From Pseudomonadota bacterium (GTDB lineage Bacteria; Bdellovibrionota; Bdellovibrionia; Bdellovibrionales; SG-bin7), in contig JAWXAY010000005.1 in the NCBI GenBank assembly GCA_034439715.1, positions 1 through 15,417 on the forward strand: DNA of 15,417 nucleotides, in the 5' to 3' direction. The notes beneath the pieces are model-generated. The model did not search any database and was not told where the DNA came from. It saw only the letters and a program-made list of their open reading frames with translations. The position numbers and the translations under genes were made by a program. Positions 1-15,417 of this stretch are shown here, piece after piece (the first letter of the stretch is position 1; each line of letters begins with the position of its first letter).

Positions 1-1
1 A

Positions 2-97
2 AACACATTAGAAGCACTGGGGTTCATCGAATACAAACAACGGCGCGACTATTACGCACGCTGGAGAATCAGCCTGAAACCTGAGCCGAGTGGTTAA
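2..97 (+). CDS. 3' end of an upstream gene (partial), possibly a winged-helix C-terminus
   Basis: Frame 2 is open from the window edge to TAA at 95-97: NTLEALGFIEYKQRRDYYARWRISLKPEPSG*. 'LEALGFIE' resembles a wHTH helix-to-wing turn (LxxxGxI). Only 31 aa are visible, and frame 1 is also open to 84. Confidence 0.35.
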   Translation, partial: NTLEALGFIEYKQRRDYYARWRISLKPEPSG

Positions 98-105
98 TTT
101 AACCA
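91..105. promoter_or_regulatory. Perfect 7-1-7 palindrome TGGTTAA-T-TTAACCA, candidate operator
   Basis: Exact inverted repeat read from the sequence. The 1-nt spacer and AT-rich arms fit a dimeric protein site better than a terminator. Confidence 0.35.
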
Positions 106-274
106 TTTAGACTTATTTCAAAATCCACTAAAAACGGAGGGAGACTTCATATGTAAACCCCTCAAGCACCTGTCCAAACTCTGTACACCGCTGTCGTTAG
201 TGCAGAACCGTAGGCGCGCGCGCGAGGCATGCCATTTGCAAAAGTATAGCTATAAGAAAAGGCGGGAGAACAAT

Positions 275-817
275 ATGAATCCAATCAGGGTAACTAAAAT
301 ATCCATTATCCTAGCAGCCGCAATAATGACATTCCAGGGTTGCTCAAAAGTCGCCTTTGAAAGAGTTAACTCAACACTCACTAAAAGTGGCAATAATACC
401 AACAGAGACTATGATATTGCTATCGATGCGAACCGGGATCCGCAGAAATATATCGAACTATGTGAGCGACAGAGATTGTCCTCAAGTGGTGTCAATGTTG
501 CGGCTGGCAGCGATTTAACGAATTTAGTAGGAAACATCATTATAAGAAGCGAAGACTTAGGGAACATTAAAAATATCACTGGCAATCTCATTATTGTTAA
601 TTCAGGGGATACTGGCAATATTGATTCCATAGATCTTACTTTTGGCAATACCATTATTTGCGGTTTTGATATCGGATCCATCAACAAGCACACTGGTAAC
701 CTGGTTGTCGTTGGTGGTGATATCGGCAGTCTCGCAAATTCCACGGGCAATGTGGTTGTCATCGGGGGAACCATCGGCACTATATCGGGAAATACAGGAA
801 ATCTCGTTACTAGGTAA
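275..817 (+). CDS. Putative lipoprotein with about 5-6 tandem 17-aa beta-solenoid repeats
   Basis: ATG at 275 follows GGGAG (264-268), so it is preferred over GTG 200. Signal MNPIRVTKISIILAAAIMTFQG-C has a lipobox-like Cys. The C-terminal half repeats GN-[hydrophobic]4-xx-D/T-IG-x-I/L-xxx-T. Confidence 0.75.
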   Translation: MNPIRVTKISIILAAAIMTFQGCSKVAFERVNSTLTKSGNNTNRDYDIAIDANRDPQKYIELCERQRLSSSGVNVAAGSDLTNLVGNIIIRSEDLGNIKNITGNLIIVNSGDTGNIDSIDLTFGNTIICGFDIGSINKHTGNLVVVGGDIGSLANSTGNVVVIGGTIGTISGNTGNLVTR

Positions 818-880
818 AGAGACTTAGCAAAGTAAAAAATGTAATTTTTAATTTTGTCGACACAATCTTCAAGCGCCCCC

Positions 881-901
881 TTGGGGATTGACAATCCCCA
901 A
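881..901. terminator. Perfect inverted repeat TTGGGGATTG-A-CAATCCCCAA; intrinsic terminator of the lipoprotein gene or an operator
   Basis: 10-bp perfect arms 64 bp after the stop at 817, followed by a weak T-rich tract (TGCTTTGTTT). Confidence 0.5.
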
Positions 902-919
902 TGCTTTGTTTCTCTGCAC

Positions 920-948
920 TTGCTTCCAATTAGAACATAGGCTAAGAT
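920..948 (+). promoter_or_regulatory. Putative sigma70 promoter of the crt operon (TTGCTT-N17-TAAGAT)
   Basis: -35 TTGCTT at 920-925, 17-bp spacer, -10 TAAGAT at 943-948. The predicted start site falls at about 955, the ATG itself. Confidence 0.5.
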
Positions 949-954
949 CCCAAA

Positions 955-1380
955 ATGAAATTATTTCTAGGTTTAGTAGTTTCGTTTTTTATGAGCACGT
1001 CTTTCGGCAATGTATTAACGTTTAAATTTAAAGGGCTCAAAGAATTAAAAGGTTCTGTAAGACTCGCCATTTACAATAGCAAAGAAACCTTTCTCGACGA
1101 AAAACAGTTTTTTCGTTCGGCTTTGTCCCCGGCGACCTCAGAAGTGGTAATGATTCTAGTCGCTGACATTCCCTATGGGATTTATGCGGTAGCCGCGTTT
1201 CACGATAGTGATGATAATAATAAAATGACGAAAAACTTTTTAGGTATTCCCAAAGAGCTCTTTGGATTTTCAAATGGGGCCCAACCTTCAATTTTGGGCG
1301 CACCTTCTTTTGATGAATCAAAAATTGATTTCAACGCTAGCGCCAAGGTGTTTGAGATTAATTTACGTGAAGCCTTTTAG
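955..1380 (+). CDS. DUF2141-family exported protein
   Basis: N-terminal signal peptide. Motifs 'KGSVRLAIYNS', 'GIYAVAAFHDSDDNNKM', 'NFLGIPKELFGFSN' and 'GAPSFDES' match the family pattern GxYAvAxfHDxNxNgKlDxxxxGiPxExfGFSN. Confidence 0.88.
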   Translation: MKLFLGLVVSFFMSTSFGNVLTFKFKGLKELKGSVRLAIYNSKETFLDEKQFFRSALSPATSEVVMILVADIPYGIYAVAAFHDSDDNNKMTKNFLGIPKELFGFSNGAQPSILGAPSFDESKIDFNASAKVFEINLREAF

Positions 1381-1383
1381 ATC

Positions 1384-2547
1384 ATGAGTCAAGAAAAGTA
1401 CGACTATATTCTAGTTGGCGCTGGTCTTGCCAATGGTATTTTAGCTTTAAAACTTCATGAACAAAAAAAAAGTTTTTTGCTCATTGATGACAAATCATCT
1501 CTTGAGCGTAGCCAAACCTGGTCCTTTCATCAACACGACATTGCTAGAACTGAACATCAATGGCTCACGCCAGTCATAACTAAATCCTGGCCGGCTCATA
1601 CTGTGCGCTTTCCCAAATATCAAAAACAGCTGAATTCTTCGTACCACTCTATTACTTCAAATAACCTTTTCGCTCATATTCAGCGTCAACTGCCAGCCAA
1701 AAATATTTTGTTAAATGAAAAATTAACGAAACTTTCTCGAGACTCGGTTGTGCTTTCTGACGGCCAGACTATCAAAACTAAAAATGTCATTGATGGTCGT
1801 GGGATTTTACCTTCTGACATTAAACCTTGTGGCTACCAAAAGTTTTTGGGTTTAGATATCAAATTGAAGAAACCTCACAATCTAAGCTTTCCTATTCTTA
1901 TGGACGCCACAGTGCCTCAAACTGATGGTTACCGATTCATTTATGTTTTGCCGTGGAATGAAACTACGCTTCTGGTTGAAGACACCTATTACAGCAACAC
2001 TTCAATACTAAACAGCGCTCACATTGAGTGTGAAATTCAAAACTATATAGAGAAAAATTGGGGCCCCAGCGAAAGTGTTTTGCGGAGAGAACAAGCAGCA
2101 CTAGCTATTCCACTTACAAAAAATCTGTTTAGTTACTGGGCAAAATCTGAGGGAATTTCTTTGATTGGTTTAAGAGGAGGATTTTTTCATCCAACGACGG
2201 GATATTCATTGCCATTGGCTCTGCAAATTGCTGAGATCATAACCAAAGCCCCAAACAAAGAGGGCCCGCAGCTTTTTGATCTCTTAAGGAATGAATCTAT
2301 GAAATGGCAAAAGAAATGTCAGTTTTATCTTTTTTTGAATCGCATGATGTTTGGCGCAGCCCTACCCCATGAGAGAATTAATATTTTTGAAAGATTTTAC
2401 CAATTACCAGAACCACTGATTCAGCGTTTTTACGCGAGCCGACTCAACAAATTCGATCAAATGCGGATATTGATGGGGCGTCCTCCGGTGCCTGTGGTTC
2501 ATGCTATAAAAAGTATATTTAACACCTCCTGGATGGAAGCCCAATAA
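1384..2547 (+). CDS. crtY: Lycopene beta-cyclase (CrtY type)
   Basis: 'DYILVGAGLANGILA' dinucleotide motif, plus 'TWSFH', 'QKFLG', 'PILMDATVPQTDGYRFIYVLP', 'LLVEDTYYS', 'GGFFHPTTGYSLP', 'ERFYQLPEPLIQRFYA' and 'GRPPVP'. Confidence 0.96.
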   Translation: MSQEKYDYILVGAGLANGILALKLHEQKKSFLLIDDKSSLERSQTWSFHQHDIARTEHQWLTPVITKSWPAHTVRFPKYQKQLNSSYHSITSNNLFAHIQRQLPAKNILLNEKLTKLSRDSVVLSDGQTIKTKNVIDGRGILPSDIKPCGYQKFLGLDIKLKKPHNLSFPILMDATVPQTDGYRFIYVLPWNETTLLVEDTYYSNTSILNSAHIECEIQNYIEKNWGPSESVLRREQAALAIPLTKNLFSYWAKSEGISLIGLRGGFFHPTTGYSLPLALQIAEIITKAPNKEGPQLFDLLRNESMKWQKKCQFYLFLNRMMFGAALPHERINIFERFYQLPEPLIQRFYASRLNKFDQMRILMGRPPVPVVHAIKSIFNTSWMEAQ

Positions 2548-2549
2548 AG

Positions 2550-3533
2550 ATGTTAACTCCAAAGATTTCCTGGCTGCCAATTTCCTCTCATAAGTTGATG
2601 GAGAAATATTTAAAGCCTTCACTTTTAGGGCCTCTTGAAGAATACCTCAATCGACCAAAAAAAGAAATTCGCAGACAGCTGGTGGAATTAGGATTCAAGT
2701 GGGCGCAAAAAATAAATAAGGGTTCGTTAAAAATTTCAAAAAAGAATCTGAGCGTACTCTGTCAGATTTTGGAAGCCGTGCATGCCGGTTCTTTAATCGT
2801 TGACGATATTCAAGATGGCAGTCCCGTTCGTAGAGGACAGCCCAGCTATCATCGCCTTCATGGACTCCCCTTGGCAATCAATTCGGGAAATTGGCTTTAC
2901 TTTTGGGCCTTTAAAAAGGCCAAAGACCTCTCGCTCTCCAATCCTAGAAAAAATATGATTATCACCGTTTTACTTGATACTTTATTTGAAGGTCACCTTG
3001 GGCAGGCCCTAGATATTGGAACAAAAATAACAGATGTGCCTAGAGATGAAATTGCTAATATTAGCTTTTCTACCATGCGCTTTAAAACAGGAGCTTTGAC
3101 GGGATTAGCACTCTTTAGTGGAGCCATTATTGGCGGCATGGCGCTGAGTAAAGCTCGTAAAGTACTAGAAACGGGACGCGAGTTTGGCTTGCTCTTGCAG
3201 ATCATAGACGATCTCAAAAATTTGAAGCTCTCTAAAAATAAAATTTATGACCCAAAACTTTTTGAAGATCTACGTAATTATCGACCAGGTTACCTGTGGG
3301 CTTTTGCCGCACAAAGGTGTTCAGATAAACAGCTACGCCAACTTGTTAAAGCTACTCATGATATAGAAAACATTTCAAAAATTCGAGATTGGCTAGTTAA
3401 CCTTAATTTTTTTACTAAAGCCCTTAGAGATTTTAAAAAGAAAAAAGACACTCTCTTGGCAGCAACTCCAGAAATGAAAACGGAGCTTCAGAGTTTAATT
3501 TCTCAGTTGGAGCTTGCCTATGAAAAAAGTTAG
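2550..3533 (+). CDS. crtE: Polyprenyl diphosphate synthase, probable GGPP synthase
   Basis: FARM 'SLIVDDIQDGSPVRRG', 'GQALDI', 'KTGAL', and second motif 'QIIDDLKN'. Lies inside the crt operon. Confidence 0.85.
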   Translation: MLTPKISWLPISSHKLMEKYLKPSLLGPLEEYLNRPKKEIRRQLVELGFKWAQKINKGSLKISKKNLSVLCQILEAVHAGSLIVDDIQDGSPVRRGQPSYHRLHGLPLAINSGNWLYFWAFKKAKDLSLSNPRKNMIITVLLDTLFEGHLGQALDIGTKITDVPRDEIANISFSTMRFKTGALTGLALFSGAIIGGMALSKARKVLETGREFGLLLQIIDDLKNLKLSKNKIYDPKLFEDLRNYRPGYLWAFAAQRCSDKQLRQLVKATHDIENISKIRDWLVNLNFFTKALRDFKKKKDTLLAATPEMKTELQSLISQLELAYEKS

Positions 3534-5010
3534 AGCCGCGGTCGTTGGCAGTGGCTTTGGCGGGCTAGCTTTAGCTATACGTTTGCAGTCCCTAGGCTAT
3601 GAAACTTCAATATTTGAAAAACGTGATTTGCCAGGAGGCCGCGCTTACGTTTTTAAAGATAAAGGATTTACATTTGATGCTGGGCCCACGGTTATAACTG
3701 CTCCCGAATGTCTTGAAGAACTTTTCGCTCTTTCTGGAAGAAAAATGTCAGACTATGTGGAAATGATTCCCATCTCCCCGTTTTACCGACTCTACTGGGA
3801 AAGCGGTTATCATTTTGATTATTCAAACGACGATACGGAGCTTAAGCGGCAAATCCTGGCAAAGCACCCACAAGACTGGGATGGCTACCAGCGTTTTATG
3901 AAATACACCAAAGATGTCTTTCGTGAAGGGTATGAAAAATTAGCGCATGTTCCATTTCCTAATTTTTGGAGCATGATAAAAGTAGCTCCGCAGTTGGTTC
4001 AACTTTCTGCCTTTCGCTCAGTTTACTCGATGGTCTCAAAGTATATAAAAGATGAAGAACTTCGCCAGGCCTTCAGTTTTCATTCCTTACTCGTCGGTGG
4101 GAATCCATTTACCAGTTCCTCCATTTATACACTAATTCATTATTTAGAAAGAAATTGGGGAGTTTTTTTTCCTAGAGGCGGCACTGGCGCTTTAGTGCGG
4201 GGGCTCGTAAAACTATTTACTGATCTTGGTGGCAAAATTCACTATAACTCCGAAATTGATGAGATTTTAACTGATGGTCAAAAGGTGATGGGCTTAAGGC
4301 TCAAAAATGGTCACTCCGAACACTTTGATTTAGTCGCAAGTAATGCGGATGTGGCGCACACTTACTCCCAGTTACTCCGCAACGAAAAACAAGTTAAAAA
4401 CACTCGAAAATATATCATGAGTCGCAGTTTTAGCATGTCACTTTTTCTTATCTATTTTGGCACGGATAAAACCTATCCTCATCTCAAACACCACAACGTC
4501 ATGTTTGGCCCGCGCTATAAAGCTTTGCTGGCGGATATTTTTAAAGCAGGAAACCTATCTGATGACTTTTCTCTATACCTACATGCACCTTGTCGGACTG
4601 ACGCTTCGTTAGCACCTGAAGGCTGTGATGCTTTTTATGTTCTTTCTCCCGTTCCTCATTTAGGTAAAAACCCTATGGATTGGAAAAAAGAAGGCCCCGT
4701 TTATGCTGATAAAATTTTAGACTACTTAAGTGCCAGGTACTTGCCAAATCTTAAAAAGCACATCGTTACTCAGCGAATATTTACTCCCGTTGACTTTGAA
4801 ACAGAATTGAATTCTCAGTTTGGCTCAGCTTTTTCATTGGAACCTATCTTGACACAGAGTGCCTATTTTAGAACACAAAATCGCGAGAAAAAAATTAAGG
4901 GTTTATACTTTGTAGGAGCTGGCACTCACCCGGGAGCCGGTGTGCCCGGAGTCGTGAACTCCGCTAAAGCCACAACAGGTGTCATTTTAGCTGACGGGAA
5001 TTTGGCTTGA
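3520..5010 (+). CDS. crtI: Phytoene desaturase
   Basis: 'VVGSGFGGLALAIRLQ', 'GGRAYV...GFTFDAGPTVIT', 'FSFHSLLVGGNPF', 'DFSLYLHAP' and 'LYFVGAGTHPGAGVPGVV'. ATG at 3520 overlaps the end of crtE and has GGAG upstream. Confidence 0.97.
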   Translation: MKKVRAAVVGSGFGGLALAIRLQSLGYETSIFEKRDLPGGRAYVFKDKGFTFDAGPTVITAPECLEELFALSGRKMSDYVEMIPISPFYRLYWESGYHFDYSNDDTELKRQILAKHPQDWDGYQRFMKYTKDVFREGYEKLAHVPFPNFWSMIKVAPQLVQLSAFRSVYSMVSKYIKDEELRQAFSFHSLLVGGNPFTSSSIYTLIHYLERNWGVFFPRGGTGALVRGLVKLFTDLGGKIHYNSEIDEILTDGQKVMGLRLKNGHSEHFDLVASNADVAHTYSQLLRNEKQVKNTRKYIMSRSFSMSLFLIYFGTDKTYPHLKHHNVMFGPRYKALLADIFKAGNLSDDFSLYLHAPCRTDASLAPEGCDAFYVLSPVPHLGKNPMDWKKEGPVYADKILDYLSARYLPNLKKHIVTQRIFTPVDFETELNSQFGSAFSLEPILTQSAYFRTQNREKKIKGLYFVGAGTHPGAGVPGVVNSAKATTGVILADGNLA

Positions 5011-5924
5011 AACAGGGAGCGACACTTGCAGAACAATCTCGCGAAATCATTATGCAAGGCTCAAAAAGTTTTTCTTTAGCGGCGCTGCTACTTGGTCGAG
5101 AAACTCGTGACTCGGCTTTTTTGCTATATCACTGGTGCCGGTACTGCGATGATATGATTGATCAAGCCGAGCCAGGTAAAGCCCACGAAAAATTACAAAT
5201 GTTACGCGAACAAACTATTCAAGCGCTTACTGGCGCCGAAAATTTAGAGCCTGCCTTTCTGGCCTTGTCCCGGGTTGTAAAAAAATATTCTATTCCGCAC
5301 CACTATCCACTGGAGCTTTTGGCAGGTATGGAAATGGATGTTCTGCAGTGTCAGTATAATAGTTTTGCGAACCTCAAACTCTATTGTTATCGCGTGGCCG
5401 GCGTCGTTGGTTTAATGATGGCGCATATCTTAGGTGTGAGTCATGAGAAGGCGCTAAGGAACGCCTGTGATATGGGAATAGCTATGCAGCTAACAAATAT
5501 TGCGCGCGATATATTAACAGATGCACAGATTAACCGAATTTACCTGCCAGTAGAGTGGCTCAAAGAAGTTGGCATTCCCCCACTGGCGAATGCCATCATG
5601 AGCCCAAAGCACCGCGCTCCCCTATTTCTAATAGTCAAAAAACTATTAAACGAAGCTGAAGTCTTTTATCAATCAGGTGATCGAGGTCTGCCGTTTTTGG
5701 CTACGCAACCGAGACTCGCCATCATGTCGGCACGCTATATTTATTCTGATATTGGCCAATTGATTTTATATCGAAAGTCATTTGCCTGGGACACCCGAAC
5801 TTTTGTTCCACTCTATCGAAAGATTTTTTGGATTTCTTTGAGTCTGGTGCGCTTAACCTGGCAAGGCTTATTTAAACCCCGATTTCAAGCTACGCCAATT
5901 ACCCAAGTATGGAGGTTCCAATGA
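5007..5924 (+). CDS. crtB: Phytoene synthase
   Basis: 'GSKSFSLAA', 'LYHWCRYCDDMID', 'YCYRVAGVVGLMM' and 'GIAMQLTNIARDILTDAQINRIYLP'. TTG start overlaps the crtI TGA (TTGA). Confidence 0.96.
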   Translation: MKQGATLAEQSREIIMQGSKSFSLAALLLGRETRDSAFLLYHWCRYCDDMIDQAEPGKAHEKLQMLREQTIQALTGAENLEPAFLALSRVVKKYSIPHHYPLELLAGMEMDVLQCQYNSFANLKLYCYRVAGVVGLMMAHILGVSHEKALRNACDMGIAMQLTNIARDILTDAQINRIYLPVEWLKEVGIPPLANAIMSPKHRAPLFLIVKKLLNEAEVFYQSGDRGLPFLATQPRLAIMSARYIYSDIGQLILYRKSFAWDTRTFVPLYRKIFWISLSLVRLTWQGLFKPRFQATPITQVWRFQ

Positions 5925-6523
5925 ACCGAGCCACCTCCTTTTGGCAGGATACTGTAACTTACGCTTGTCAAATCAAGCAGTTTTCTAGAACCGACTGGAA
6001 TGTCTATTTTGCTTGGGTAGGACTAATGCTGGGCCTTTTGTTTTCGGTCTTTGGTTTTATTCTAGTGGGTTATTTTCATGGAGCTGACTTTCCACCTTAC
6101 GTTTGGAATGTACCGCTGGGCACGATTATCTTTGTGGGCGCTATTGCTTTTGATACTATTGGCCACCGAACAGCGTATAAAGAAGAACTCAAAAAGGGTG
6201 AAGAGTTAGTTCATCACATAACTATTTTTGCCGGCATAACCAGTGTTTTGGCACTATGTCTTTGTTATACCTGGCCCAGTTTTTTTAGAATTCCCGCCAT
6301 CAGTTTAATTGCGCTGAGTATTTTGTATAGCATTATTGACGAAGCTCTACACTGGCATCGTTATCTCAATAAACACTCCGATCGGGTAGAAATGTGGAGT
6401 CATTTTTTTATCTTTTTAGGTCACACAATCATGGTCCTCTCTTGGTATTATTGGTTTGATCAGGGGTACCCAGGAGTAGCCACAACAGTCGAGGCCATGA
6501 AACAAATGGGAATTTTTTTCTAA
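5921..6523 (+). CDS. Uncharacterised integral membrane protein (about 5 TM) with a duplicated Asp/His/Glu motif
   Basis: ATG at 5921 overlaps the crtB stop (ATGA), with GGAGG at 5911-5915. Five hydrophobic segments. Motifs DTIGH...EELVH and DEALH...EMWSH. Confidence 0.85.
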   Translation: MNRATSFWQDTVTYACQIKQFSRTDWNVYFAWVGLMLGLLFSVFGFILVGYFHGADFPPYVWNVPLGTIIFVGAIAFDTIGHRTAYKEELKKGEELVHHITIFAGITSVLALCLCYTWPSFFRIPAISLIALSILYSIIDEALHWHRYLNKHSDRVEMWSHFFIFLGHTIMVLSWYYWFDQGYPGVATTVEAMKQMGIFF

Positions 6524-6524
6524 G

Positions 6525-7253
6525 ATGAGCATTGAGGCACTTAGCGTCACAAGTGTTGGGCTGTATGTAATAATACTTTTTCGTTATTTTTTAATTGCGG
6601 GTTTTTTTTATTGGTTTTTTTGGATGAGGCGCCGACCTCAATGGGAGACTAGAAAACTTCAAGATACCACTCCCTCTAAAAAACTTATTTGGAGCGAAAT
6701 CCGTTGGTCTGTGATCACTTCATTTTTCTTTGCTATCCCCGGCGCAATTATGATTGAATCCTGGAAGCTCGGTGGCACAAAAATTTATACCGATTATGCG
6801 AAGTACGGTTGGATCTATCTCTTTTTAAGTATTTTTATCTATATGTTTTTACATGACACTTATTTTTATTGGACTCATAGACTTATGCACCGGCCAAAAA
6901 TCTTTCGTATTTTTCACCAAGTTCATCATGAATCACAAAATCCCACTCCTTGGGCGGCCTTTTCATTTCATCCTTATGAAGCCATCATTGAGGCCCTGAT
7001 ATTGCCCCTTTTAACTTTTTTCGTACCAATTCATATTGGTGCGTTAATCTTTGTACTGACCGCTATGACCATATTTGGGGTCACTAATCACACAGGTTAT
7101 GAGATTTTTTCGGCAAAGTGGATGCAAGGTTTATGGGGAAAACAAATGATTACGGCTACTCATCACAATCAGCACCATAAAAATTATTTCTGCAATTTTG
7201 GCTTGTACTTTCGGTTTTGGGATAAATTCATGCAGACAGATAAAATGACTTAG
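6525..7253 (+). CDS. crtG: Sterol desaturase/fatty acid hydroxylase family di-iron enzyme, probable carotenoid 2,2'-beta-ring hydroxylase (CrtG-like)
   Basis: His boxes HDTYFYWTHRLMH, HQVHH, NH and HHNQHH, plus 'NFGLYFRFWDK'. Segments 'RYFL', 'ESWKLGGTKIY', 'VPIH' and 'ITATHH' match CrtG as I recall it from Brevundimonas. Last gene of the crt operon. Confidence 0.75.
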   Translation: MSIEALSVTSVGLYVIILFRYFLIAGFFYWFFWMRRRPQWETRKLQDTTPSKKLIWSEIRWSVITSFFFAIPGAIMIESWKLGGTKIYTDYAKYGWIYLFLSIFIYMFLHDTYFYWTHRLMHRPKIFRIFHQVHHESQNPTPWAAFSFHPYEAIIEALILPLLTFFVPIHIGALIFVLTAMTIFGVTNHTGYEIFSAKWMQGLWGKQMITATHHNQHHKNYFCNFGLYFRFWDKFMQTDKMT

Positions 7254-7286
7254 ATTTGCTCTTTTCTTAAACAAAACTGTTTTTTC

Positions 7287-7316
7287 TTTACAATACACTT
7301 TATGCCTCGCTAAACT
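7287..7316 (+). promoter_or_regulatory. Putative sigma70 promoter for pstS (TTTACA-N18-TAAACT)
   Basis: -35 at 7287-7292 and -10 at 7311-7316 in the 109-bp AT-rich gap. Confidence 0.4.
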
Positions 7317-7362
7317 TAACTCTCATTTTCACTTTTAATTCAATTTTAGAGAAGGCAAAAAT

Positions 7363-8175
7363 ATGATTAAATTTTTATATGTTTTGTTGGTATGGATGCC
7401 ATTTAGTCAATTGGCAAATGCGGCGGATGTTCCCCAGAAATTAGTAATCACGGGCTCTAGTACAGTGGCACCGCTAATAAGTGAAATTGCCAAAGCTTTT
7501 GAAGCTAGTAACCAAGGAGTAAGAATTGACGTGCAAAGTGGTGGCTCTTCACGAGGAATTTCAGATGCCCGCCAGAGTATGAGCGATATTGGTATGATTT
7601 CGCGTGATTTAAAACCTGAAGAAAATGACTTAAAAGGCTTCGCCATCGCCAAAGACGGCATTTGCGTTATCCTTCATAAAAACAATCCCATCACGAAGCT
7701 TGAAGACAGTCAAATTGTCGACATCTACACTGGTAAAATTAAAAATTGGCAGGAACTTGGTGGCAAAGATGCACCAATTACGGTTGTCAACAAAGCCGAA
7801 GGGCGCTCTACACTCGAGCTGTTTGTTAATTATTTTAAATTGAAGAATTCTGACATAAAACCCCATGTTATTATCGGTGATAACGAGCAAGGCGTTAAAA
7901 CCGTAGCTGGTAATGCGAACGCTATAGGTTATGTTTCGATCGGAACTGCCGAGTATGATTCCGCACAGGGTGTCGCCATAAAACTTTTACCCATCGGTGG
8001 CACCAGTGCTTCTATAGAAAACGTAAAAAATGGCAAGTTCCCACTTTCTCGTAATCTGCTCTTGGTGACCACAACCGAACCAAATGGATTAAAAAAGAAG
8101 TTTATTGAATTTGCGCGCTCAAAAGAGGTTATAGGCATTGTTAAGCAACAGTATCTTGTCCCCATTACGAAATGA
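7363..8175 (+). CDS. pstS: Phosphate ABC transporter substrate-binding protein
   Basis: Sec signal (ANA-A), 'ITGSSTVAP', 'GGSSRG', 'DIGMISRDLK', 'IYTGKIKNWQELGG' and 'FPLSRNL'. RBS AGAAGG. Confidence 0.92.
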   Translation: MIKFLYVLLVWMPFSQLANAADVPQKLVITGSSTVAPLISEIAKAFEASNQGVRIDVQSGGSSRGISDARQSMSDIGMISRDLKPEENDLKGFAIAKDGICVILHKNNPITKLEDSQIVDIYTGKIKNWQELGGKDAPITVVNKAEGRSTLELFVNYFKLKNSDIKPHVIIGDNEQGVKTVAGNANAIGYVSIGTAEYDSAQGVAIKLLPIGGTSASIENVKNGKFPLSRNLLLVTTTEPNGLKKKFIEFARSKEVIGIVKQQYLVPITK

Positions 8176-9007
8176 GTTAGCTCTAGTTTGGCTACTTCGC
8201 ATCTTGGCACTAATGGCAGGAGCTTTGGTCCTGCTGATTTTTGCTTTTTTACTCAATGAATCTTTGCCCATCTTGGGGCTTGTCGGTTTGTCGGCTTTTT
8301 TTTCTGATCCCTCTTGGCATCCTATGGAGGGATTTTTTAATCTCACCTCAATGCTTTTGGGAACTCTTTACGCCACGGCTGGGTCGGTTCTCTTGGCGGC
8401 TCCCCTGGGAATATTATCGGCAATTTTTTGCCGCTTTTATGCTCCCACTCATGTTGCTAGGATTTTTCGCAACCTGATGGAGTCACTTTCTGGAGTGCCC
8501 TCTGTCGTGTTTGGTTTTTGGGGATTGACGGTACTTGTACCTTTGGTGAACCAGATTCATCCCCCTGGGCCCAGTCTATTTGCTGGAATTTCAATATTAA
8601 CAATGATGATTTTACCCACTATGGCTATGGCAGCCGATGCTAGTTTTGCAAGCGTTCCACAAAACTATTTACGAGGGGCACAGGCTCTCGGCCTTTCTAA
8701 ATCAGCAACGCTATTAGGAGTAGTTCTCCCGGCTGCAAAAGCTGGACTACTATCAGGTCTCATTTTACAAAGCGGTCGCGCCATTGGCGAAACTATGGCT
8801 CTTCTTATGGTTTGTGGCAACGTGGTTCAAACACCAAAAAATATATTTGATCCAATCAGGACACTTACGACCAACATTGCTCTAGAAATGGCTTACGCCA
8901 TGGGAAGCCACCGATCGGCACTTTTTGTAAGTGGCCTTATTTTAATGTTGTTTATTGTTGTCCTACTTATAGCAGCCGAAGGCATCAATCGTGTTCCAAA
9001 GAGATAG
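8138..9007 (+). CDS. pstC: Phosphate ABC transporter permease PstC (start uncertain: TTG 8138 or TTG 8156)
   Basis: 'GVPSVVFGFWG', 'MILPT', an EAA-like loop 'VPQNYLRGAQALG', 'GRAIGETMALLMVCGN', 'RTLTTNIALEM' and 'HRSALF'. Confidence 0.93.
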   Translation: MLSNSILSPLRNELALVWLLRILALMAGALVLLIFAFLLNESLPILGLVGLSAFFSDPSWHPMEGFFNLTSMLLGTLYATAGSVLLAAPLGILSAIFCRFYAPTHVARIFRNLMESLSGVPSVVFGFWGLTVLVPLVNQIHPPGPSLFAGISILTMMILPTMAMAADASFASVPQNYLRGAQALGLSKSATLLGVVLPAAKAGLLSGLILQSGRAIGETMALLMVCGNVVQTPKNIFDPIRTLTTNIALEMAYAMGSHRSALFVSGLILMLFIVVLLIAAEGINRVPKR

Positions 9008-9830
9008 GCTATTCACTTTAATAGTTTGGTCGGCAGCATTGTTAGTTGTGCTTATCTTTGCCTCCTTCATTGGGAATATTATTTATTATGGACTAAAAAA
9101 TTTTTCGTTTCTTTATCTTTGGAGCAATCCTATAAATACCGGACGAGAAGGCGGCATATTTCCAATTATAATTTCTACACTACTCATTCTTTTGGTTTGC
9201 ATGACTGTCGCTATCCCCTTGAGTCTGTGTACGGCGATATTTTTAACGGAATTTACCTCTCAAGAAAATATTTTAGCGAGATTTATTCGACGAAGTATTG
9301 ACGTTTTATCGGGAGTTCCCTCGATAGTGTTCGGGCTTTTCGGCAATGCTTTCTTTTCTGTTAAACTAGGTCTCGGCTTCTCAATTTTGTCGGGAGGACT
9401 TACCTTGGCCTGCATGGTTTTACCAATTATGATTCGCTTGACCCAAGAGGGCTTGCGGGCGGTCCCGCCAGAGTATAGTCTCTCGGGTTCAGCTCTTGGT
9501 ATTTCAAGATCTCAAATTTTATTACATCTTCTTTTACCGGCGGCGGCGCCTAGTGTGATCGTCGGCCTTGTATTGGGGGTTGGCCGGGCATTGGCCGAGA
9601 CTGCCGCCTTGGTTTTTACCAGCGGTTATGTCGATCGACTGCCCCAGTCTTTGTGGGATTCGGGTCGGGCCTTATCTGTTCATATTTATGATTTATCAAT
9701 GAACGTTCCCGGCGGAGAGACCAGTGCTTACAAGTCAGCATTTACCTTACTAATTCTTGTTTTCTTTATTAACTCGATTACCACTCAACTCACAAAACTA
9801 TGGTTACAGAAGAGGATTATTTTACAATGA
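8991..9830 (+). CDS. pstA: Phosphate ABC transporter permease PstA
   Basis: 'GGIFPIIISTL', 'LSGVPSIVFGLFG', 'GGLTLACMVLP' and 'GRALAETAALVFT'. GTG start overlaps pstC. Confidence 0.93.
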   Translation: MFQRDRLFTLIVWSAALLVVLIFASFIGNIIYYGLKNFSFLYLWSNPINTGREGGIFPIIISTLLILLVCMTVAIPLSLCTAIFLTEFTSQENILARFIRRSIDVLSGVPSIVFGLFGNAFFSVKLGLGFSILSGGLTLACMVLPIMIRLTQEGLRAVPPEYSLSGSALGISRSQILLHLLLPAAAPSVIVGLVLGVGRALAETAALVFTSGYVDRLPQSLWDSGRALSVHIYDLSMNVPGGETSAYKSAFTLLILVFFINSITTQLTKLWLQKRIILQ

Positions 9831-10660
9831 ATAAAGAACTACCCGAGTTTTATCCCTCGTTACCCTTAAAAATAAGACCCGACTGTTGCGAACCCAGTCC
9901 TCACTTTCAAATCGAAAATCTGAGTCTGAAATACGGCAGTAAATTTGCTTTTAGAAATATAAAACTCACCCTCAACAGAGGTTGTATTACGGCGTTGGTC
10001 GGGCCCTCGGGCTGCGGAAAAACGAGCTTCTTGATGTGTCTTAACCGACTTATTGAGTTGATTCCGGGTGCCTCAGTCACAGGAGAAATATTTTTTGACA
10101 CCCAAGATCTTATGAAAGCGAAAACTCCTGTCATAGAGCTTCGACGTAAAGTAGGGATGATTTTTCAAAAACCAAACCCGTTTCCTCAGACAATTCGGAA
10201 AAATATTGAGTTCCCTTTAAAAGAGCATGGCATTTTAGATCCTATAAAAAGGCGGGAAATTTTAGAAAGAGCCCTCACCGATGTGGGTCTTTGGCAAGAA
10301 GTTAAAGACCGTTTGGAAGCCCCAGCTCTGACCCTTTCCGGAGGACAACAGCAGCGCTTATGTATTGCACGTGCAATAGCGTTAGAACCCGAGGTTCTCT
10401 TAATGGACGAGCCCTGCAGCTCGCTCGATCCTATTTCGAGCGGCGTTGTCGAAGATCTCATCGCAAGTCTTCGGCAAAGATTTACTGTTTTGATTGTTAC
10501 CCACAATTTAGCTCAAGCTCGACGGATTGCCGACTATGTGGCTTTTTTCTGGTTAGAAGATGGAGCCGGAAGCTTGATAGAGTCCGGTCCAACAAAACAG
10601 ATCTTTAACGAGCCTCGACATAAGTTAACTGCGGCTTATATCGGTGGGCTTAGAGGTTAA
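9827..10660 (+). CDS. pstB: Phosphate ABC transporter ATP-binding protein
   Basis: Walker A GPSGCGKT, 'VGMIFQKPNPFP', signature LSGGQQQRLCIAR, Walker B LLMDEPCSSLDP, and 'VTHN'. ATG at 9827 overlaps the pstA TGA, with GAGGA upstream. Confidence 0.96.
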   Translation: MNKELPEFYPSLPLKIRPDCCEPSPHFQIENLSLKYGSKFAFRNIKLTLNRGCITALVGPSGCGKTSFLMCLNRLIELIPGASVTGEIFFDTQDLMKAKTPVIELRRKVGMIFQKPNPFPQTIRKNIEFPLKEHGILDPIKRREILERALTDVGLWQEVKDRLEAPALTLSGGQQQRLCIARAIALEPEVLLMDEPCSSLDPISSGVVEDLIASLRQRFTVLIVTHNLAQARRIADYVAFFWLEDGAGSLIESGPTKQIFNEPRHKLTAAYIGGLRG

Positions 10661-11346
10661 TAAGGCGTTGCTAAAAACGGCCAGGTTGCTGGGCCACCGT
10701 AGCTTGTTTGCCCGTTCAACAACTTATGCCCTTGTGAACTATTTCCAGCTGTACCCTGATAACTGACATTGTCTTTAATAGTTCCTCCTGACGGATCTCC
10801 TGCTACTAAATAGCTGAGGGTAATATCTATCACGTCATCTTCAATTTTTCTGCCTCCAGTTAACATGGCCGCCTTGGTACCTCTAACGAGAACAAAGTCC
10901 CCATTATAAGCGGCAGTGCCTGGTGGAATGGCCTTACTGGTATCGATTCGCATAACGTCTGGCAAAAAGCCCGTAACAACTTCACTATTAAAACCATCAC
11001 CAAAAGTATTGGTCCCCTCTAGGGAATCCACTAAATCAAGAGCAAAGCTTGCTTCTGTTAAAACTTCAAGTACCGCAGGATTATCAGTGGCAAGATCCAG
11101 CGTCGGCGGAATGCTGTTAAAAGCCACTAATTTATTATTACTGACTAATAAGCCTTCATTAACTGCGGGCCTACCTAGCCTTTCAATTTGCACATATGTG
11201 GTTTCGGCTACCACAGTTGTATTTAAAGCATTTTGTAATGATGATTCCAGTGGTTTAAATTTACCGCAATTCTGAACTCCATAAAGCGTTCCTGATATGG
11301 CGATAACCGCGATTGTTAAATTGGTATAAAACCTTTTATTTTTCAT
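10657..11346 (-). CDS. DUF4331-like lipoprotein (C-terminal-half motifs)
   Basis: Signal ending 'LYGVQN-C'. Motifs 'YVQIERLGRPAVNEGL', 'LPDVMRID', 'GGRKIEDDVIDITL' and 'WPFLATP'. RBS AAGGAG. Confidence 0.8.
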   Translation of the reverse strand: MKNKRFYTNLTIAVIAISGTLYGVQNCGKFKPLESSLQNALNTTVVAETTYVQIERLGRPAVNEGLLVSNNKLVAFNSIPPTLDLATDNPAVLEVLTEASFALDLVDSLEGTNTFGDGFNSEVVTGFLPDVMRIDTSKAIPPGTAAYNGDFVLVRGTKAAMLTGGRKIEDDVIDITLSYLVAGDPSGGTIKDNVSYQGTAGNSSQGHKLLNGQTSYGGPATWPFLATPY

Positions 11347-11364
11347 ATTTATCTCCTTTTGGAC

Positions 11365-12114
11365 TTATTTTGGTACCGAAATAGTCGACCATACGTCAAA
11401 TATGGGTTCGCGAGCATTACTTTGCAGAAAATCTATCGGTACTCGAACGACTATAGTGTTGACGTTGTAGAAGCGAGTAAAATCTGACGCCAGAGCAGGA
11501 GCAAGAAAACCGATAAAGGCTTTGGTCGCAATAGCTTGAGCGCGCACTTTAAAAAACTGATTGACGTCAAAAAAGAAAGGGTCTTCTCGAAGTCCCGCAA
11601 AAACTGTGAGGCGATGATTATCGATAGCAATTTGGTTATTGGTGTTTCTATTGGCCTTCGAATCACCAATTGGAGTCGTTAAAAGTAAAGCCCCATCTGG
11701 AGATTTATCAAGTTGCACCATTTGTCCATCTCTGATTGCCGTCAGAGTAAAGCTCTGGCGTCCGCTGGCCAATGGAGCAGAGAATTTAAAACGCAAAATT
11801 ACGTCGTCTTTACCAACTGGCTTGTCAGTCTTATTGTTAGCGGGGACTCTGGTGATGTGAAAGTCATATAGCGCTTGGCTACTAAAAAAGTACTGCTGGT
11901 TTGGTAAAGACCTGGGGTTAGTATTCATGGTCAGAATCAAGTTGCCTTGATCGGCGGGATTACCTGTTTGATTGTCCTCTCTAAATACATAAAGGTCTGT
12001 GAGGTTCAAACTCCTGCCCTTGAGATCAATTTCACCGTCATCATGATCGGAAGCTTTAACTTGAAGCGAAAAAATAACGGCGATAGCCGTTAAACAGAAA
12101 AGATTTTTAAACAT
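11365..12114 (-). CDS. DUF4331-like secreted protein (N-terminal-half motifs)
   Basis: Signal VKA-S followed by 'SDHDDGE'. Motifs 'LTDLYVF', 'VFAGLREDPFFFD', 'DFTRFYNVNTIVVRVP' and 'VWSTIS'. RBS AAGGAG. Confidence 0.85.
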   Translation of the reverse strand: MFKNLFCLTAIAVIFSLQVKASDHDDGEIDLKGRSLNLTDLYVFREDNQTGNPADQGNLILTMNTNPRSLPNQQYFFSSQALYDFHITRVPANNKTDKPVGKDDVILRFKFSAPLASGRQSFTLTAIRDGQMVQLDKSPDGALLLTTPIGDSKANRNTNNQIAIDNHRLTVFAGLREDPFFFDVNQFFKVRAQAIATKAFIGFLAPALASDFTRFYNVNTIVVRVPIDFLQSNAREPIFDVWSTISVPK

Positions 12115-12140
12115 GTTAACTCCTTTAGCTAAGATTTAGT

Positions 12141-12169
12141 TTAACGAGTACTTAAATAAAGTATATACT
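12141..12169 (+). promoter_or_regulatory. Putative sigma70 promoter (TTAACG-N17-TATACT) for the lspA-fusion/hupE operon
   Basis: -35 at 12141-12146 and -10 at 12164-12169. The -10 lies inside the palindrome AGTATATACT (12160-12169). Confidence 0.5.
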
Positions 12170-12193
12170 CTACATGGTGCGTCTTTTTTGACT

Positions 12194-13642
12194 ATGGAAA
12201 ATAAGAAACAAGTATTCAAAACTATTATTTTGCCACTGCTGATTGTTTTCGCAAGCGACCGTATTGCTAAAATTCTCTCTTTAGGTCTAGTCAATACCAC
12301 AGAATTCGGCCCTTTTATTTTTCAGTTACATAAAAACCATGGTCTCATGCTAGGCACGCTCGCTGATAGTCCTGAGGAATTCAGAACCATCGCGCTTTCA
12401 ACATTTGGTGCCTTTCTATTTAGCGTTTTCGTGGCGCTTCAATATTTCATTCCGGCGACCTTACCCCGCTTGCGACTAGGTTTATCGATATTTATGGGTG
12501 GAATTTTAGGTAATATTTTTGACCGTGTGCAATTTGGTTACGTTATTGATTCTGTCGTGGTGCAGTTCGCTCAGTTTCATACGGGAATATTTAATGTCGC
12601 TGATGCTTGGCAGTGGCTTGGCGTCGGCCTAATACTTTGGGATCTCGTGACACGCGGACAACTGCTCTGGCCTGAAAATGAAAAACGTGCTGGCAAGTGG
12701 ATAGATCCCGCCTTCCAGGCACGCTATAGCGCTATTCTTTTGTCCATCGGTTTTACGTTTACTGTCATTATGGGAATTTTCACTTTCACCTATCTAAAAT
12801 TTGTAGTGCAAAAATTACCTGTGGGCTTAATCTCTCAGGCTATCATAGCTAATTTTGGTCTGATGTTTCTTTCAATTGCGGGAATATTTTTTTTACTTTT
12901 GATTTTCATTGGGCGCCTACTCTCTCATCGTATTGCCGGCCCTATTTATGCTTTTGAAATTTTTCTCGAAAATATTCTGATGGGTCAAGTGGGTGATTTT
13001 AAACTCCGCGAGCAGGATGAGTTCAAACGTTTTGAAAAACTGGCCAACAAATTTCAAGATTTTTTTCATAAACAATTAAATCTTCCCCTGCCTCCGCTGC
13101 GACAGAATATGTTGGCCCCCCAATTTTTGGGACAAACCTTTTTTGGTCAATCACTAAACCTGTCGACCTTAAAAGGTTCAAAAGTCTGGCTGTGTTTTTT
13201 TCGCTATGCTACCTGCCCCCTTTGCGTCACTTATATTGACGAAGTATATTCTCAACATAAAAACGAAATCAAAGACGCCGCTCTTAAAGTGATTATGGTG
13301 TTCGATTCTCCTTCTGAAAATTTCTTAAAGAATGTGACGGGTAATACAAAAAAACTCTTGGAATCCCTTCCCTTCCCTCTCGTTGCCGATCCCGACAAAC
13401 AAATTTATAAACTTTATCGTACCCAAAAAACAGTGATAGGTTTTTTTCATCCACTGGCCTTTAAGCAGTTTCTGCTGTCAATTAAAAGAGGTTTTAAGCA
13501 GTTTTGGATAGACGGCGAATTAGGCCAAAAACCCGCCCACTTTTTATTGAACAAAGATGGAACCATAAATACTGTATATTATGGATCCCATATTGCCGAC
13601 CAAATTCCATGGGAACAAGTAAAGTCGTTTTTGGAAGCCTAA
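12194..13642 (+). CDS. Fusion protein: signal peptidase II (peptidase A8) + 2 TM/HAMP-like linker + peroxiredoxin-like (AhpC/TSA) CxxC domain
   Basis: LspA motifs 'SDRIAK', 'NHGLMLG', 'GGILGNIFDR..FGYVID' and 'FNVAD'. Two more TM helices, then 'SHRIAGPIYAFE...FKLREQDEFKRFEKLAN'. Then 'APQF...LKGSKVWLCFFRYATCPLC...FPLVADPDKQIYKLY...PAHFLLNKDGTI..VYYG'. Start is ATG 12194 or TTG 12188. Confidence 0.88.
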   Translation: MENKKQVFKTIILPLLIVFASDRIAKILSLGLVNTTEFGPFIFQLHKNHGLMLGTLADSPEEFRTIALSTFGAFLFSVFVALQYFIPATLPRLRLGLSIFMGGILGNIFDRVQFGYVIDSVVVQFAQFHTGIFNVADAWQWLGVGLILWDLVTRGQLLWPENEKRAGKWIDPAFQARYSAILLSIGFTFTVIMGIFTFTYLKFVVQKLPVGLISQAIIANFGLMFLSIAGIFFLLLIFIGRLLSHRIAGPIYAFEIFLENILMGQVGDFKLREQDEFKRFEKLANKFQDFFHKQLNLPLPPLRQNMLAPQFLGQTFFGQSLNLSTLKGSKVWLCFFRYATCPLCVTYIDEVYSQHKNEIKDAALKVIMVFDSPSENFLKNVTGNTKKLLESLPFPLVADPDKQIYKLYRTQKTVIGFFHPLAFKQFLLSIKRGFKQFWIDGELGQKPAHFLLNKDGTINTVYYGSHIADQIPWEQVKSFLEA

Positions 13643-13645
13643 CCT

Positions 13646-14698: not shown

Positions 14699-15330
14699 AA
14701 AAACCGTGAGGTTTTATAATTAGAGTTTTTAAAGTCCATTAGTAAAGAAATATAGGGATGAACAAATCCCAGATTTACGACTTTTTCAAGCGTATATTTG
14801 GCAGCAACAATGTCCTGATTTTCTCTCTGTGCCTTTGCCAAGTACATAAGTGTGATGGGATGCGGCCGACTCATGGCCTCTTCTTCGGCCAAGCGCCTCG
14901 CCTCCAAAAGAGAACCTTGCTCCCCATTATCCAGTAAGAGTTTCACAAGCTGCATGCGGTGACCGTATTTTCCGACTAATAAGTCTTCTCGCAGATTTTT
15001 TTCGACTTCACTTAAAAGAAGCTTAGATTTTTCGATCTGATTTGAGATTTTATACACGAACGCAAGTTCAATAATGATATCAGGATCGGCATAATAAGAT
15101 AGCGCTTCGATAAGTTTTTGTGTCGCCTGAGTCAAATTATTCTTAAGCACAAAATACTGAGCACTGAGACGTAACGCCATACTGTCATCAGGACGAATTC
15201 GTAGGGCTTCTGCTAAAACATAACGGGCTTCTTCTAAATACCCAAAACGTAAATAGAGACGCGCTAAAACCGAGCGCGTCCAAGAAGCCCCTTCGGCATC
15301 GCCTACGTCCTCTATCTTTGTGGTGTTCAC
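14695..15330 (-). CDS. Tetratricopeptide-repeat protein, probably N-terminally truncated
   Basis: TPR-like units 'LARLYLRFGYLEEARYVLAEALRIRPDD' and 'LAKAQRENQDIVAAKYTLEKVVNLG'. GTG start, in-frame TAA at 15346-15348, no signal peptide. Confidence 0.75.
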   Translation of the reverse strand: MNTTKIEDVGDAEGASWTRSVLARLYLRFGYLEEARYVLAEALRIRPDDSMALRLSAQYFVLKNNLTQATQKLIEALSYYADPDIIIELAFVYKISNQIEKSKLLLSEVEKNLREDLLVGKYGHRMQLVKLLLDNGEQGSLLEARRLAEEEAMSRPHPITLMYLAKAQRENQDIVAAKYTLEKVVNLGFVHPYISLLMDFKNSNYKTSRFF

Positions 15331-15416
15331 GCAATTTCTTCCGCTTTAAATTGGCGCGGTTGATTGCCTCTGGTTATTGTAATTAGCGAGAAGTCCTGCA
15401 TCGTTTTTAATATTTC
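15327..15416 (-). CDS. 3' end of an upstream gene (partial)
   Basis: Minus-strand frame open from the window edge: EILKTMQDFSLITITRGNQPRQFKAEEIA*. Its TGA overlaps the TPR GTG (GTGA). A second frame (RNIKNDAGLLANYNNQRQSTAPI*) is also open, so the true frame is uncertain. Confidence 0.35.
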   Translation of the reverse strand, partial: EILKTMQDFSLITITRGNQPRQFKAEEIA

Positions 15417-15417
15417 T

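Follow-up and report, generated by a model that had tools for sequence, protein, structure and literature searches.

Carotenoid operons of Bdellovibrionota contain a conserved gene for a small membrane protein that may stand in for the beta-carotene hydroxylase CrtZ. Here, we describe this gene in a 15,417-nucleotide stretch of DNA from the Bdellovibrionales lineage SG-bin7 (assembly GCA_034439715.1, contig JAWXAY010000005.1, positions 1–15,417; hereafter, the window), which is one entire contig of a 3.26 Mb genome estimated to be 95.7% complete. The protein, labelled X, is the 200-amino-acid (aa) product of the open reading frame (ORF) at 5921–6523 on the + strand. We propose, in order of decreasing strength, that (i) X is very probably a carotenoid-pathway protein, (ii) X is probably a catalytic, carotenoid-modifying metalloenzyme, and (iii) X is a non-homologous, metal-dependent beta-ring oxygenase, namely a CrtZ-like beta-ring hydroxylase that replaces CrtZ. 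We regard the case for the third proposal, which is drawn from genome comparison, as evenly balanced.

X belongs to the crt operons of Bdellovibrionota

The X family is a fixed part of beta-carotene-type carotenoid (crt) operons in Bdellovibrionota, which have the order crtY-crtE-crtI-crtB-X. One genome per species was scanned, relatives of X were found in 192 stretches, and 80 loci were kept, at which gene presence was scored by tblastn with the proteins of the window. This detected crtB at 72 loci, crtI at 68, a crtE-like gene at 57, crtY at 54, an FA_hydroxylase gene at 21 and a DUF2141 gene at five. One more locus (L033; handles of the form L###, G### and f## denote the loci, genomes and families compared) carries a crtB fragment directly upstream of X that was recognized with Pfam, giving 73 of 80 loci with crtB immediately 5' of X. 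The family is tied to crt genes, the linkage on which the first-pass annotation of this DNA built. The crtB stop and X start overlap at 63 of the 72 loci, by four bases at 41 of these.

Where crtY is not close to X, it lies elsewhere in the genome (five of five genomes tested), and at L067 a PF18916-type cyclase is found in its place. L017 and L040 have almost no DNA upstream of X, while at L005 and L067 an ABC-2 transporter pair separates the crt genes from X, and a GT2 glycosyltransferase gene follows it. Downstream of X lie a convergent ABC-2 permease/ATPase pair (21 loci, often with an FA_hydroxylase gene in the same minus-strand operon), a GT2 gene (four loci) or, elsewhere, AsmA-like or unrelated genes.

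In the window, which has a G+C content of 41%, X sits in a tight + strand operon (DUF2141-crtY-crtE position-crtI-crtB-X-FA_hydroxylase), with pstSCAB downstream of the FA_hydroxylase gene. The features are as follows.

955–1380, + strand: DUF2141 gene at the head of the cluster (PF09912, E 3e-29)
1384–2547, + strand: crtY, lycopene beta-cyclase (TIGR01789, 373 bits, which exceeds the cut-off)
2550–3533, + strand: polyprenyl diphosphate synthase gene in the crtE position (PF00348)
3514–5010, + strand: crtI, phytoene desaturase (TIGR02734, 677 bits)
5007–5924, + strand: crtB, phytoene synthase, immediately 5' of X (PF00494, E 5e-63; NF042419, 251 bits, curated cut-off 480)
5911–5924, + strand: GGAGG at 5911–5915, then ATGA at 5921–5924, the overlap of the X start and the crtB stop (from the sequence)
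5921–6523, + strand: gene X, a predicted inner-membrane protein of 200 aa that has five long helices and founds a family without a name (translation; AlphaFold2 model)
6152–6214, + strand: motif copy 1, D78-x3-H82...E94-x3-H98, at the turn between helices 59–82 and 87–114 (pattern, alignment and model)
6338–6403, + strand: motif copy 2, D140(E141)-x3-H144...E157-x3-H161, at the turn between helices 119–150 and 155–180 (pattern, alignment and model)
6525–7253, + strand: FA_hydroxylase-family gene, 242 aa, the "crtG" of the first-pass annotation (PF04116, E 2e-29)

The ATG of X (5921–5923) overlaps the crtB stop codon TGA (5922–5924), and its stop codon TAA (6521–6523) is separated by 1 bp from the next ATG at 6525; the ATGA overlap and the 1 bp gap are as the first-pass annotation had them. 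An alternative in-frame ATG lies at 5909. We favour 5921 as the start because GGAGG stands five bases ahead of it.

Three X copies carry a Polyangiales label (L019:8001–8558, L045:8001–8558 and L063:2120–2677) and are 63–68% identical to that of the window. They belong to a set of four loci of high G+C content (0.61–0.67; L068 is the fourth) in which no crt gene lies in the flanks examined. In the three labelled loci X follows an M23 peptidase gene, and further upstream lies a gene for a sigma-54 activator (L019, L045) or an FHA histidine kinase (L063). These copies could reflect mis-binning, gene transfer or a second genomic context.

X carries conserved Asp/Glu/His pairs on four consecutive helices

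Numbered from the ATG at 5921, residues D78, H82, Y86, E94, H98, D140, H144, Y148, E157 and H161 all stand where the first-pass annotation had placed them, and the pattern D-x3-H-x3-Y-x7/8-E-x3-H matches X at residues 78 and 140. When the protein was shuffled 200,000 times, 170 shuffles contained the looser pattern D-x3-H-x11/12-E-x3-H one or more times, and a single shuffle contained it two or more times. Earlier described as an orphan, X in fact has 981 homologues at E ≤ 0.001 in a word-indexed search. The best 120 of these 981 are 63–84% identical to X, carry "hypothetical" as the only name given, include proteins from Bdellovibrionales, Bacteriovoracaceae and Peredibacter starrii, and keep both motif copies in every case (120/120). 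The family is nevertheless narrow, since a full hidden Markov model search of 1.84 billion cluster representatives gave just 92 matches, mostly fragments.

Conservation was also read from an alignment of ten sequences, X and nine full-length representatives from the most divergent end of the family (22–58% identity). In this alignment H82, E94, D140, E141, H144, E157, H161, P58, W178 and Y183 are invariant, and conservation is 90% or more at D78, H98 and R147; Y86 and Y148 vary. The eight Asp/Glu/His residues of the original motif therefore hold up, while its tyrosines do not. Among X homologues E95 (of E95-x2-H98) and H99 also vary. Similarly, the motif is present in two copies as claimed, but a true internal duplication is unproven because the halves of X share no sequence similarity beyond it (hhalign probability 1.7%, from a low-diversity alignment with Neff 1.6). 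Proteins of ~180–220 aa with five transmembrane helices and D-x3-H/E-x3-H in two helix-turn-helix units comprise all 120 close homologues, the nine divergent representatives, and paralogues at L121 and L122.

Some candidate relatives were set aside. A weak match in G043 is spurious, the protein being signal-peptidase-like. For the genomic context of the most distant representatives (P0151 and similar), a metagenome scan with an alignment returned nothing; a second scan with a single protein as query gave two weak 70-residue matches that lie outside any open frame, have no crt genes nearby and were treated as spurious. The clusters of these representatives yielded neither names nor taxa. No X relative was found in the plasmid collection.

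X is confidently modelled as a bundle of five transmembrane helices. The AlphaFold2 model, made with 42 homologues (predicted local distance difference test, pLDDT, 93.2; predicted template modelling score, pTM, 0.85), has helices at 7–20, 23–52, 59–82, 87–114, 119–150, 155–180 and 186–195. D78/H82 terminate helix 59–82, and E94/H98, D140/H144 and E157/H161 lie within 87–114, 119–150 and 155–180, respectively; by these positions each motif copy straddles a helix-turn-helix, as had been proposed. The two motif loops contain four and three Lys+Arg, compared with 0 and 0 in the opposite loops, and under the positive-inside rule both motif copies are thus predicted to be cytoplasmic. In sum, the nine conserved Asp/Glu/His residues form i/i+4 pairs on four consecutive helices beside positively charged loops.

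Searches for a known family or fold gave nothing convincing. X matched no family in Pfam-A or NCBIfam, and none in Pfam even at E up to 10. The sole match of its family profile among PDB sequences spans 46 aa at E 0.9, which is chance; in the ESM Atlas X matches only "hypothetical protein" clusters; and Foldseek against the PDB gave no hit at E ≤ 0.001. No fold match was convincing, the scores lying in a range that unrelated helical bundles also reach. As inferred in the first-pass annotation, X is not detectably homologous to CrtZ- and CrtG-type FA_hydroxylases: it has no Pfam match to FA_hydroxylase (PF04116) at E up to 10, hhalign against short CrtZ-like and long FA_hydroxylases gives a probability of 0.8%, and the family's histidine boxes (which we take to be H-x3/4-H, H-x2-HH and H-x2-HH) are absent from X, whose sole HH pair is H98-H99. 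Neither an FA_desaturase nor a P450 match to X was found in Pfam.

X and CrtZ are alternatives within Bdellovibrionota

The comparison set consisted of 301 Bdellovibrionota genomes, 90 of them crtB-positive (a crtB-like match at E ≤ 1e-18). X was matched in 56 of the 301, strongly in 53, and a short CrtZ-like gene (query, the 152-aa protein of G116) in 25. The crtB-positive genomes divide into 51 with X only, 23 with CrtZ only, one with both and 15 with neither, making X and short CrtZ near-exclusive (both in one of 75 carriers, G284). Fisher's test gives p = 2e-10, which overstates the case because related genomes are not independent and their kinship inflates significance. More telling is the presence of both states inside each of the families f2, f19, f22 and f28. 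In a CrtI tree of 70 rows (60 X-type, nine CrtZ-type and one neither)—for which the ten X-minus crt clusters were the best crtB matches without X, not a random sample—the CrtZ-type rows are scattered among the X-type rows. The tree needs seven state changes, at least five of them forced by well-supported branches.

CrtZ also tends to take the place of X. In 10 of its 25 genomes it is encoded on the crtB strand, at most 0.9 kb downstream of crtB, and in 16 it lies within ~4 kb on the same contig; at L117 and L118, a PF18916 cyclase gene fills the gap between crtB and CrtZ. G122 has the order crtI-crtB-CrtZ-like-GT1, its CrtZ-like gene encoding a 143-aa FA_hydroxylase. G116 has the layout of the window minus X, with a 61%-identical long FA_hydroxylase gene directly after crtB and the gene for its 152-aa CrtZ-like protein a few genes away. 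The short FA_hydroxylases of these two genomes are 41% identical, and have what we take to be the size and histidine boxes of CrtZ.

The genome that contains the window has four FA_hydroxylase genes in open frames of 250–341 aa, none of the short CrtZ type; in this assembly no short CrtZ, P450 or CruF was found. The complete genome of Bdellovibrio sp. HCB117 (G072/G301), whose operon reads crtY-E-I-B-X-GT2-DUF2141, has no FA_hydroxylase and no CruF. Among the 15 crtB-positive genomes with neither X nor CrtZ, 11 have the beta-carotene 15,15'-dioxygenase Blh and hence look retinal-only. Since these 11 manage without either gene, X is not needed for phytoene, beta-carotene or retinal.

The first-pass annotation had offered X as a possible replacement for a missing CrtZ. 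The near-exclusion, the repeated swaps on the CrtI tree and the lack of a short CrtZ in the window genome lend comparative support to this idea, under which the two would yield an equivalent product. On the comparative evidence X would work like CrtZ while lying outside the CrtZ family and every other family tested, and would represent a new family of enzymes that carries out a step of a known type.

Proposed mechanism and comparison with known systems

In the mechanism that we propose, helices 2–5 of X would form a four-helix bundle in which, on each helix, a carboxylate stands one turn away from a histidine (D78/H82, E94/H98, D140(E141)/H144 and E157/H161). The D/E-His pairs would line the bundle core near the cytoplasmic membrane surface, the face at which the site is predicted because both motif turns are rich in Lys and Arg. 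One or two metal ions would be bound, and the parallel with CrtZ, AOX/PTOX and Coq7 makes di-iron the most plausible choice. Such a centre would activate O2 and oxygenate a carotenoid end group that reaches the site from the bilayer, the most likely reaction being 3(3')-hydroxylation of the beta-ring, which converts beta-carotene to zeaxanthin. We suggest a general cellular donor for the electrons, as for CrtZ, because no partner is encoded nearby. The neighbouring FA_hydroxylase, or GT2 where present, could then modify the product.

X resembles CrtZ in being a small integral-membrane protein of crt operons, in its slot after crtB, in a distribution in which each is the alternative to the other, and in a presumed His-ligated metal site at the cytoplasmic face. 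It differs in having no detectable homology and no H-x4-H or H-x2-HH boxes, and in carrying instead four D/E-x3-H pairs on four helices, with as many carboxylates as histidines. Hydroxylation of the beta-ring at position 3 has been invented repeatedly in unrelated folds: CrtR, the cyanobacterial beta-carotene hydroxylase, belongs to the FA_desaturase family, and CYP175A1 of Thermus is a non-homologous beta-carotene hydroxylase of the P450 type (excerpts of PMC3111180). X matches neither of these precedents.

With AOX/PTOX/Coq7 and designed four-helix di-metal bundles, as generally described, X would share a four-helix bundle, pseudo-two-fold carboxylate/His pairs and, as substrates, membrane isoprenoid lipids. 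AOX/PTOX/Coq7 have E...E-x2-H twice (four Glu and two His) and bind to the membrane surface, whereas X is fully transmembrane and has D/E-x3-H four times. The usual di-iron pattern E...E-x2-H...E...E-x2-H is not found in X, where only E141-x2-H144 is conserved and the conserved spacing is D/E-x3-H. AOX/PTOX/Coq7-type folds are absent from the 50 best VIA-align results and from the Foldseek results for X, an absence that does not exclude the fold. We also count PhoU-like proteins (PDB 3l39, 2i0m, 1sum and 1t72) among the closest known systems.

A distant paralogue of 194 aa keeps both D/E-x3-H pairs and is encoded between two UbiA prenyltransferase genes in G026 (L122:5962–8233), a genome without a crtB match. 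The operon also contains VTC, a DUF4956-like gene, an FAD-dependent halogenase/cyclase-like gene and an MMPL transporter gene. Because the paralogue sits amid genes for UbiA and an MMPL exporter, this context fits a family of membrane-isoprenoid-modifying enzymes; if our proposal for X is true, the wider family, with its UbiA-linked paralogues, would be a general class of membrane-isoprenoid oxygenases.

A candidate source of the Kin4B8-type antenna pigment

Kin4B8 is a xanthorhodopsin of an uncultured Bdellovibrionota bacterium and binds the 3-hydroxylated carotenoids zeaxanthin and lutein as light-harvesting antennae (excerpts of bioRxiv 10.1101/2022.08.24.505090). A close relative is encoded in G038, a species-representative Bdellovibrionota genome (95% complete): its rhodopsin (L102:585–1352) aligns with Kin4B8 (PDB 7YTB) at E 4e-152, with ~22 mismatches over 256 aligned positions (~91% identity). 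The same genome has crtY-crtE-crtI::crtB(fused)-X, and Blh beside the xanthorhodopsin gene; neither an FA_hydroxylase-family (CrtZ-family) gene nor a P450 was found in it. If the G038 organism makes its own antenna pigment, X would be the obvious candidate for the hydroxylation step, and offers a testable candidate for a self-made pigment in Kin4B8-type cells as opposed to uptake from the surroundings. More tentatively, X might be an independently evolved beta-carotene hydroxylase with an undescribed transmembrane four-helix di-metal site (the four D/E-x3-H pairs), making the native hydroxy-xanthophyll antenna of Kin4B8-type xanthorhodopsins in freshwater Bdellovibrionota.

Searches of an open-access collection found no paper on the X family or on a Bdellovibrionota carotenoid hydroxylase. 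Known carotenoid ring hydroxylases are of three unrelated types: CrtZ/BCH, CrtR and P450s. If the proposal is true, X would be a fourth, with an unprecedented ligand pattern within the membrane; it would offer both a metalloenzyme scaffold of a new kind and an additional part for the engineering of xanthophylls. A gap in the prediction of pigments from genomes would close as well, since X is not annotated and 51 of the 90 crtB-positive genomes of Bdellovibrionota would pass for makers of plain beta-carotene.

Evidence against a CrtZ-like function, and alternative functions

Several points weigh against X being a CrtZ-like hydroxylase. Firstly, with respect to the site, the convergence of the eight residues is argued from helix positions in the model alone, metal binding and chemistry are proposals, and the D/E-x3-H spacing is, to our knowledge, unlike known di-iron motifs (E-x2-H or His boxes). 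Secondly, with respect to distribution, complementarity shows that X and CrtZ are alternatives, not that their products are identical; were X a ketolase or another end-group enzyme in lineages with a different pigment, the pattern would look the same. The genomes compared are related and not independent, the ten X-minus loci of the tree were selected, and G284 has both X and a CrtZ-like gene. Four high-GC, Myxococcota-type loci have X without a crt gene in the flanks examined, and distant X paralogues occur in crtB-negative genomes. Thirdly, other genes or routes could supply the hydroxyl group or do without it. FA_desaturase-family genes, a family that includes CrtR-type hydroxylases, are present in five of five genomes tested, and G038 has one ~4.5 kb from its rhodopsin gene; the antenna pigment in G038 may derive from this gene, or be taken up from the environment or prey. 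G016, whose CrtI is sister to that of HCB117, has crtE-I-B-GT2 without X, CrtZ or a remnant of X; GT2 can thus occur independently of X, which leaves the argument from GT2 to a hydroxyl-making X weak.

The cluster of G016 (L113:5991–7013) has no recognizable cyclase, and a 378-aa ORF upstream of it belongs to no family and has no relatives among the other loci. It may represent a different, acyclic and glycosylated carotenoid pathway.

The alternative that survives best leaves X a carotenoid oxygenase but gives it other chemistry, as a 4-ketolase (CrtW-like), 2-hydroxylase, 5,6-epoxidase or ring desaturase; lineages with X would then contain a different xanthophyll. The same synteny, conservation and complementarity data serve this alternative, because none of them fixes regiochemistry, and the neighbouring enzyme, if it is CrtG, would accept 4-keto as well as 3-hydroxy rings (excerpts of PMC3111180). 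We nonetheless consider it rather unlikely: X repeatedly replaces CrtZ in the same operon slot, and at four loci it is followed by GT2, which needs a hydroxyl or carboxyl acceptor. Ketolases, furthermore, usually coexist with CrtZ rather than exclude it.

It is improbable that X is a non-oxygenase acting on a polyprenyl head group or chain, whether as a metal-dependent, Lipocone-like phosphoesterase or transferase on geranylgeranyl diphosphate or prephytoene diphosphate, or as a hydratase or isomerase. X is tightly coupled to crtB, its distant paralogue lies between two UbiA prenyltransferases, which are users of prenyl diphosphates, and conserved His, Glu and Asp residues at one opening of a membrane core of four helices are reminiscent of the Lipocone site. 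In excerpts of PMC12419801, the four-helix Lipocone core bears His (H2), Glu (H3) and Asp (H4) around an opening that is predicted to face the outer leaflet in integral-membrane members, and one Lipocone family, Wok/DUF2238, is reported to neighbour carotenoid genes, frequently within operons of actinobacteria. In X, by contrast, the motif loops look cytoplasmic, and X has no Pfam match to the Lipocone-related families DUF2238, VanZ and DUF2279 at E up to 10. Moreover, crtEIBY clusters work without X in the retinal-only genomes, and the exclusion between X and CrtZ would be left unexplained.

To the same low degree, X could be non-catalytic: an anchor or scaffold for CrtB/CrtI, a TSPO/CrtK-type carotenoid- or tetrapyrrole-binding regulator, or a metal-ion channel. 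The fold scores lie within the range of unrelated helical bundles, and X has no Pfam match to TspO_MBR (PF03073); TSPO itself lacks the His/carboxylate set. The nine invariant or nearly invariant Asp/Glu/His residues look more like a metal site or active site than like the surface of a scaffold, and alternation with CrtZ is not what one would expect of a scaffold.

Very improbable is an obligate partnership, redox or structural, between X and the FA_hydroxylase encoded downstream. A redox partnership had been raised in the first-pass annotation, and the 1 bp gap in the window, together with the adjacency of the pair at L002, speaks for one. Evidence from across the family disfavours the idea: an FA_hydroxylase gene is found within 8 kb in 21 of 80 X loci, often on the opposite strand in an operon with the ABC-2 transporter; at least three X-positive genomes (G072/G301, G038 and G054) have no such gene; and G116 has the 61%-identical FA_hydroxylase without X. 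The window neighbour belongs to the FA_hydroxylase family, and CrtG is a candidate label for it, its relatives being named only "sterol desaturase" or "lathosterol oxidase". The best annotated of them ("sterol desaturase family") are 38–44% identical and come from plasmids of Sphingomonas, Pseudanabaena and Acaryochloris; cyanobacterial and Sphingomonas proteins of 38–52% identity are among the relatives. The substrates of Brevundimonas CrtG are rings that bear a 3-hydroxy or 4-keto group, and one variant accepts plain beta-rings too (excerpts of PMC3111180).

Finally, we give almost no credence to X as a retinal-forming, beta-carotene-cleaving replacement for Blh/Brp, even though X lies in the membrane, has conserved histidines and is encoded at the end of a crtYEIB operon, a frequent position of blh, and some Bdellovibrionota carry rhodopsins (32 of 301). 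Blh, which acts on beta-carotene, is likewise a membrane protein with conserved histidines encoded with crt genes, but it shares no homology with X (no Pfam or NCBIfam match of X to PF15461; hhalign against ten Bdellovibrionota Blh, 0.25%), and it travels with rhodopsin and coexists with X. Blh was matched in 28 of the 301 genomes (26 above the family cut-off), mostly adjoining rhodopsin. Of the 53 strong X-positive genomes, 41 have no rhodopsin match, and the window genome has no match to rhodopsin, heliorhodopsin, Blh or an RPE65-type oxygenase. Only 12 genomes have both X and rhodopsin; ten of these have their own Blh, beside the rhodopsin gene wherever both coordinates are listed, and the assemblies of the remaining two are fragmented. 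On these data X is not the retinal enzyme and has no tie to rhodopsin, and this candidate function was rejected.

Additional observations on crt clusters and the window

Blh matches fall in open frames of 661–721 aa in G025, G049, G080, G117 and G149, with adjoining crtB-like matches in the first four; Blh in these five genomes may form a fusion with a second gene or be subject to read-through into it. In family f15, crtI and crtB occupy one open frame of ~815 aa (809–848 aa) with X directly after it, for example at L125:7273–9720 in G038. This long frame looks like a natural CrtI::CrtB fusion.

An ABC ATPase and ABC-2 permease pair recurs in crt clusters (L004:8587–10213 and 20 other loci; L005:1040–2643; L067:6395–7995; L109:4673–6257). 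The pair occurs in X-type and CrtZ-type clusters alike, is often co-transcribed with a long FA_hydroxylase gene, and may export or flip a xanthophyll or xanthophyll glycoside. DUF2141 also travels with carotenoid genes: it heads the window operon (955–1380), follows an FA_hydroxylase homologue on a plasmid of Sphingomonas parapaucimobilis (L107:6824–7144) and follows GT2 in Bdellovibrio sp. HCB117 (L071:9600–10031).

Elsewhere in the window, two adjacent ORFs of 249 aa and 229 aa on the minus strand (10657–12114) match DUF4331 residues 1–237 and 245–391, and look like a split or frameshifted gene. A 484-aa ORF at 12188–13642 combines a signal peptidase II (LspA) domain with an AhpC/TSA-redoxin domain, an unusual fusion.

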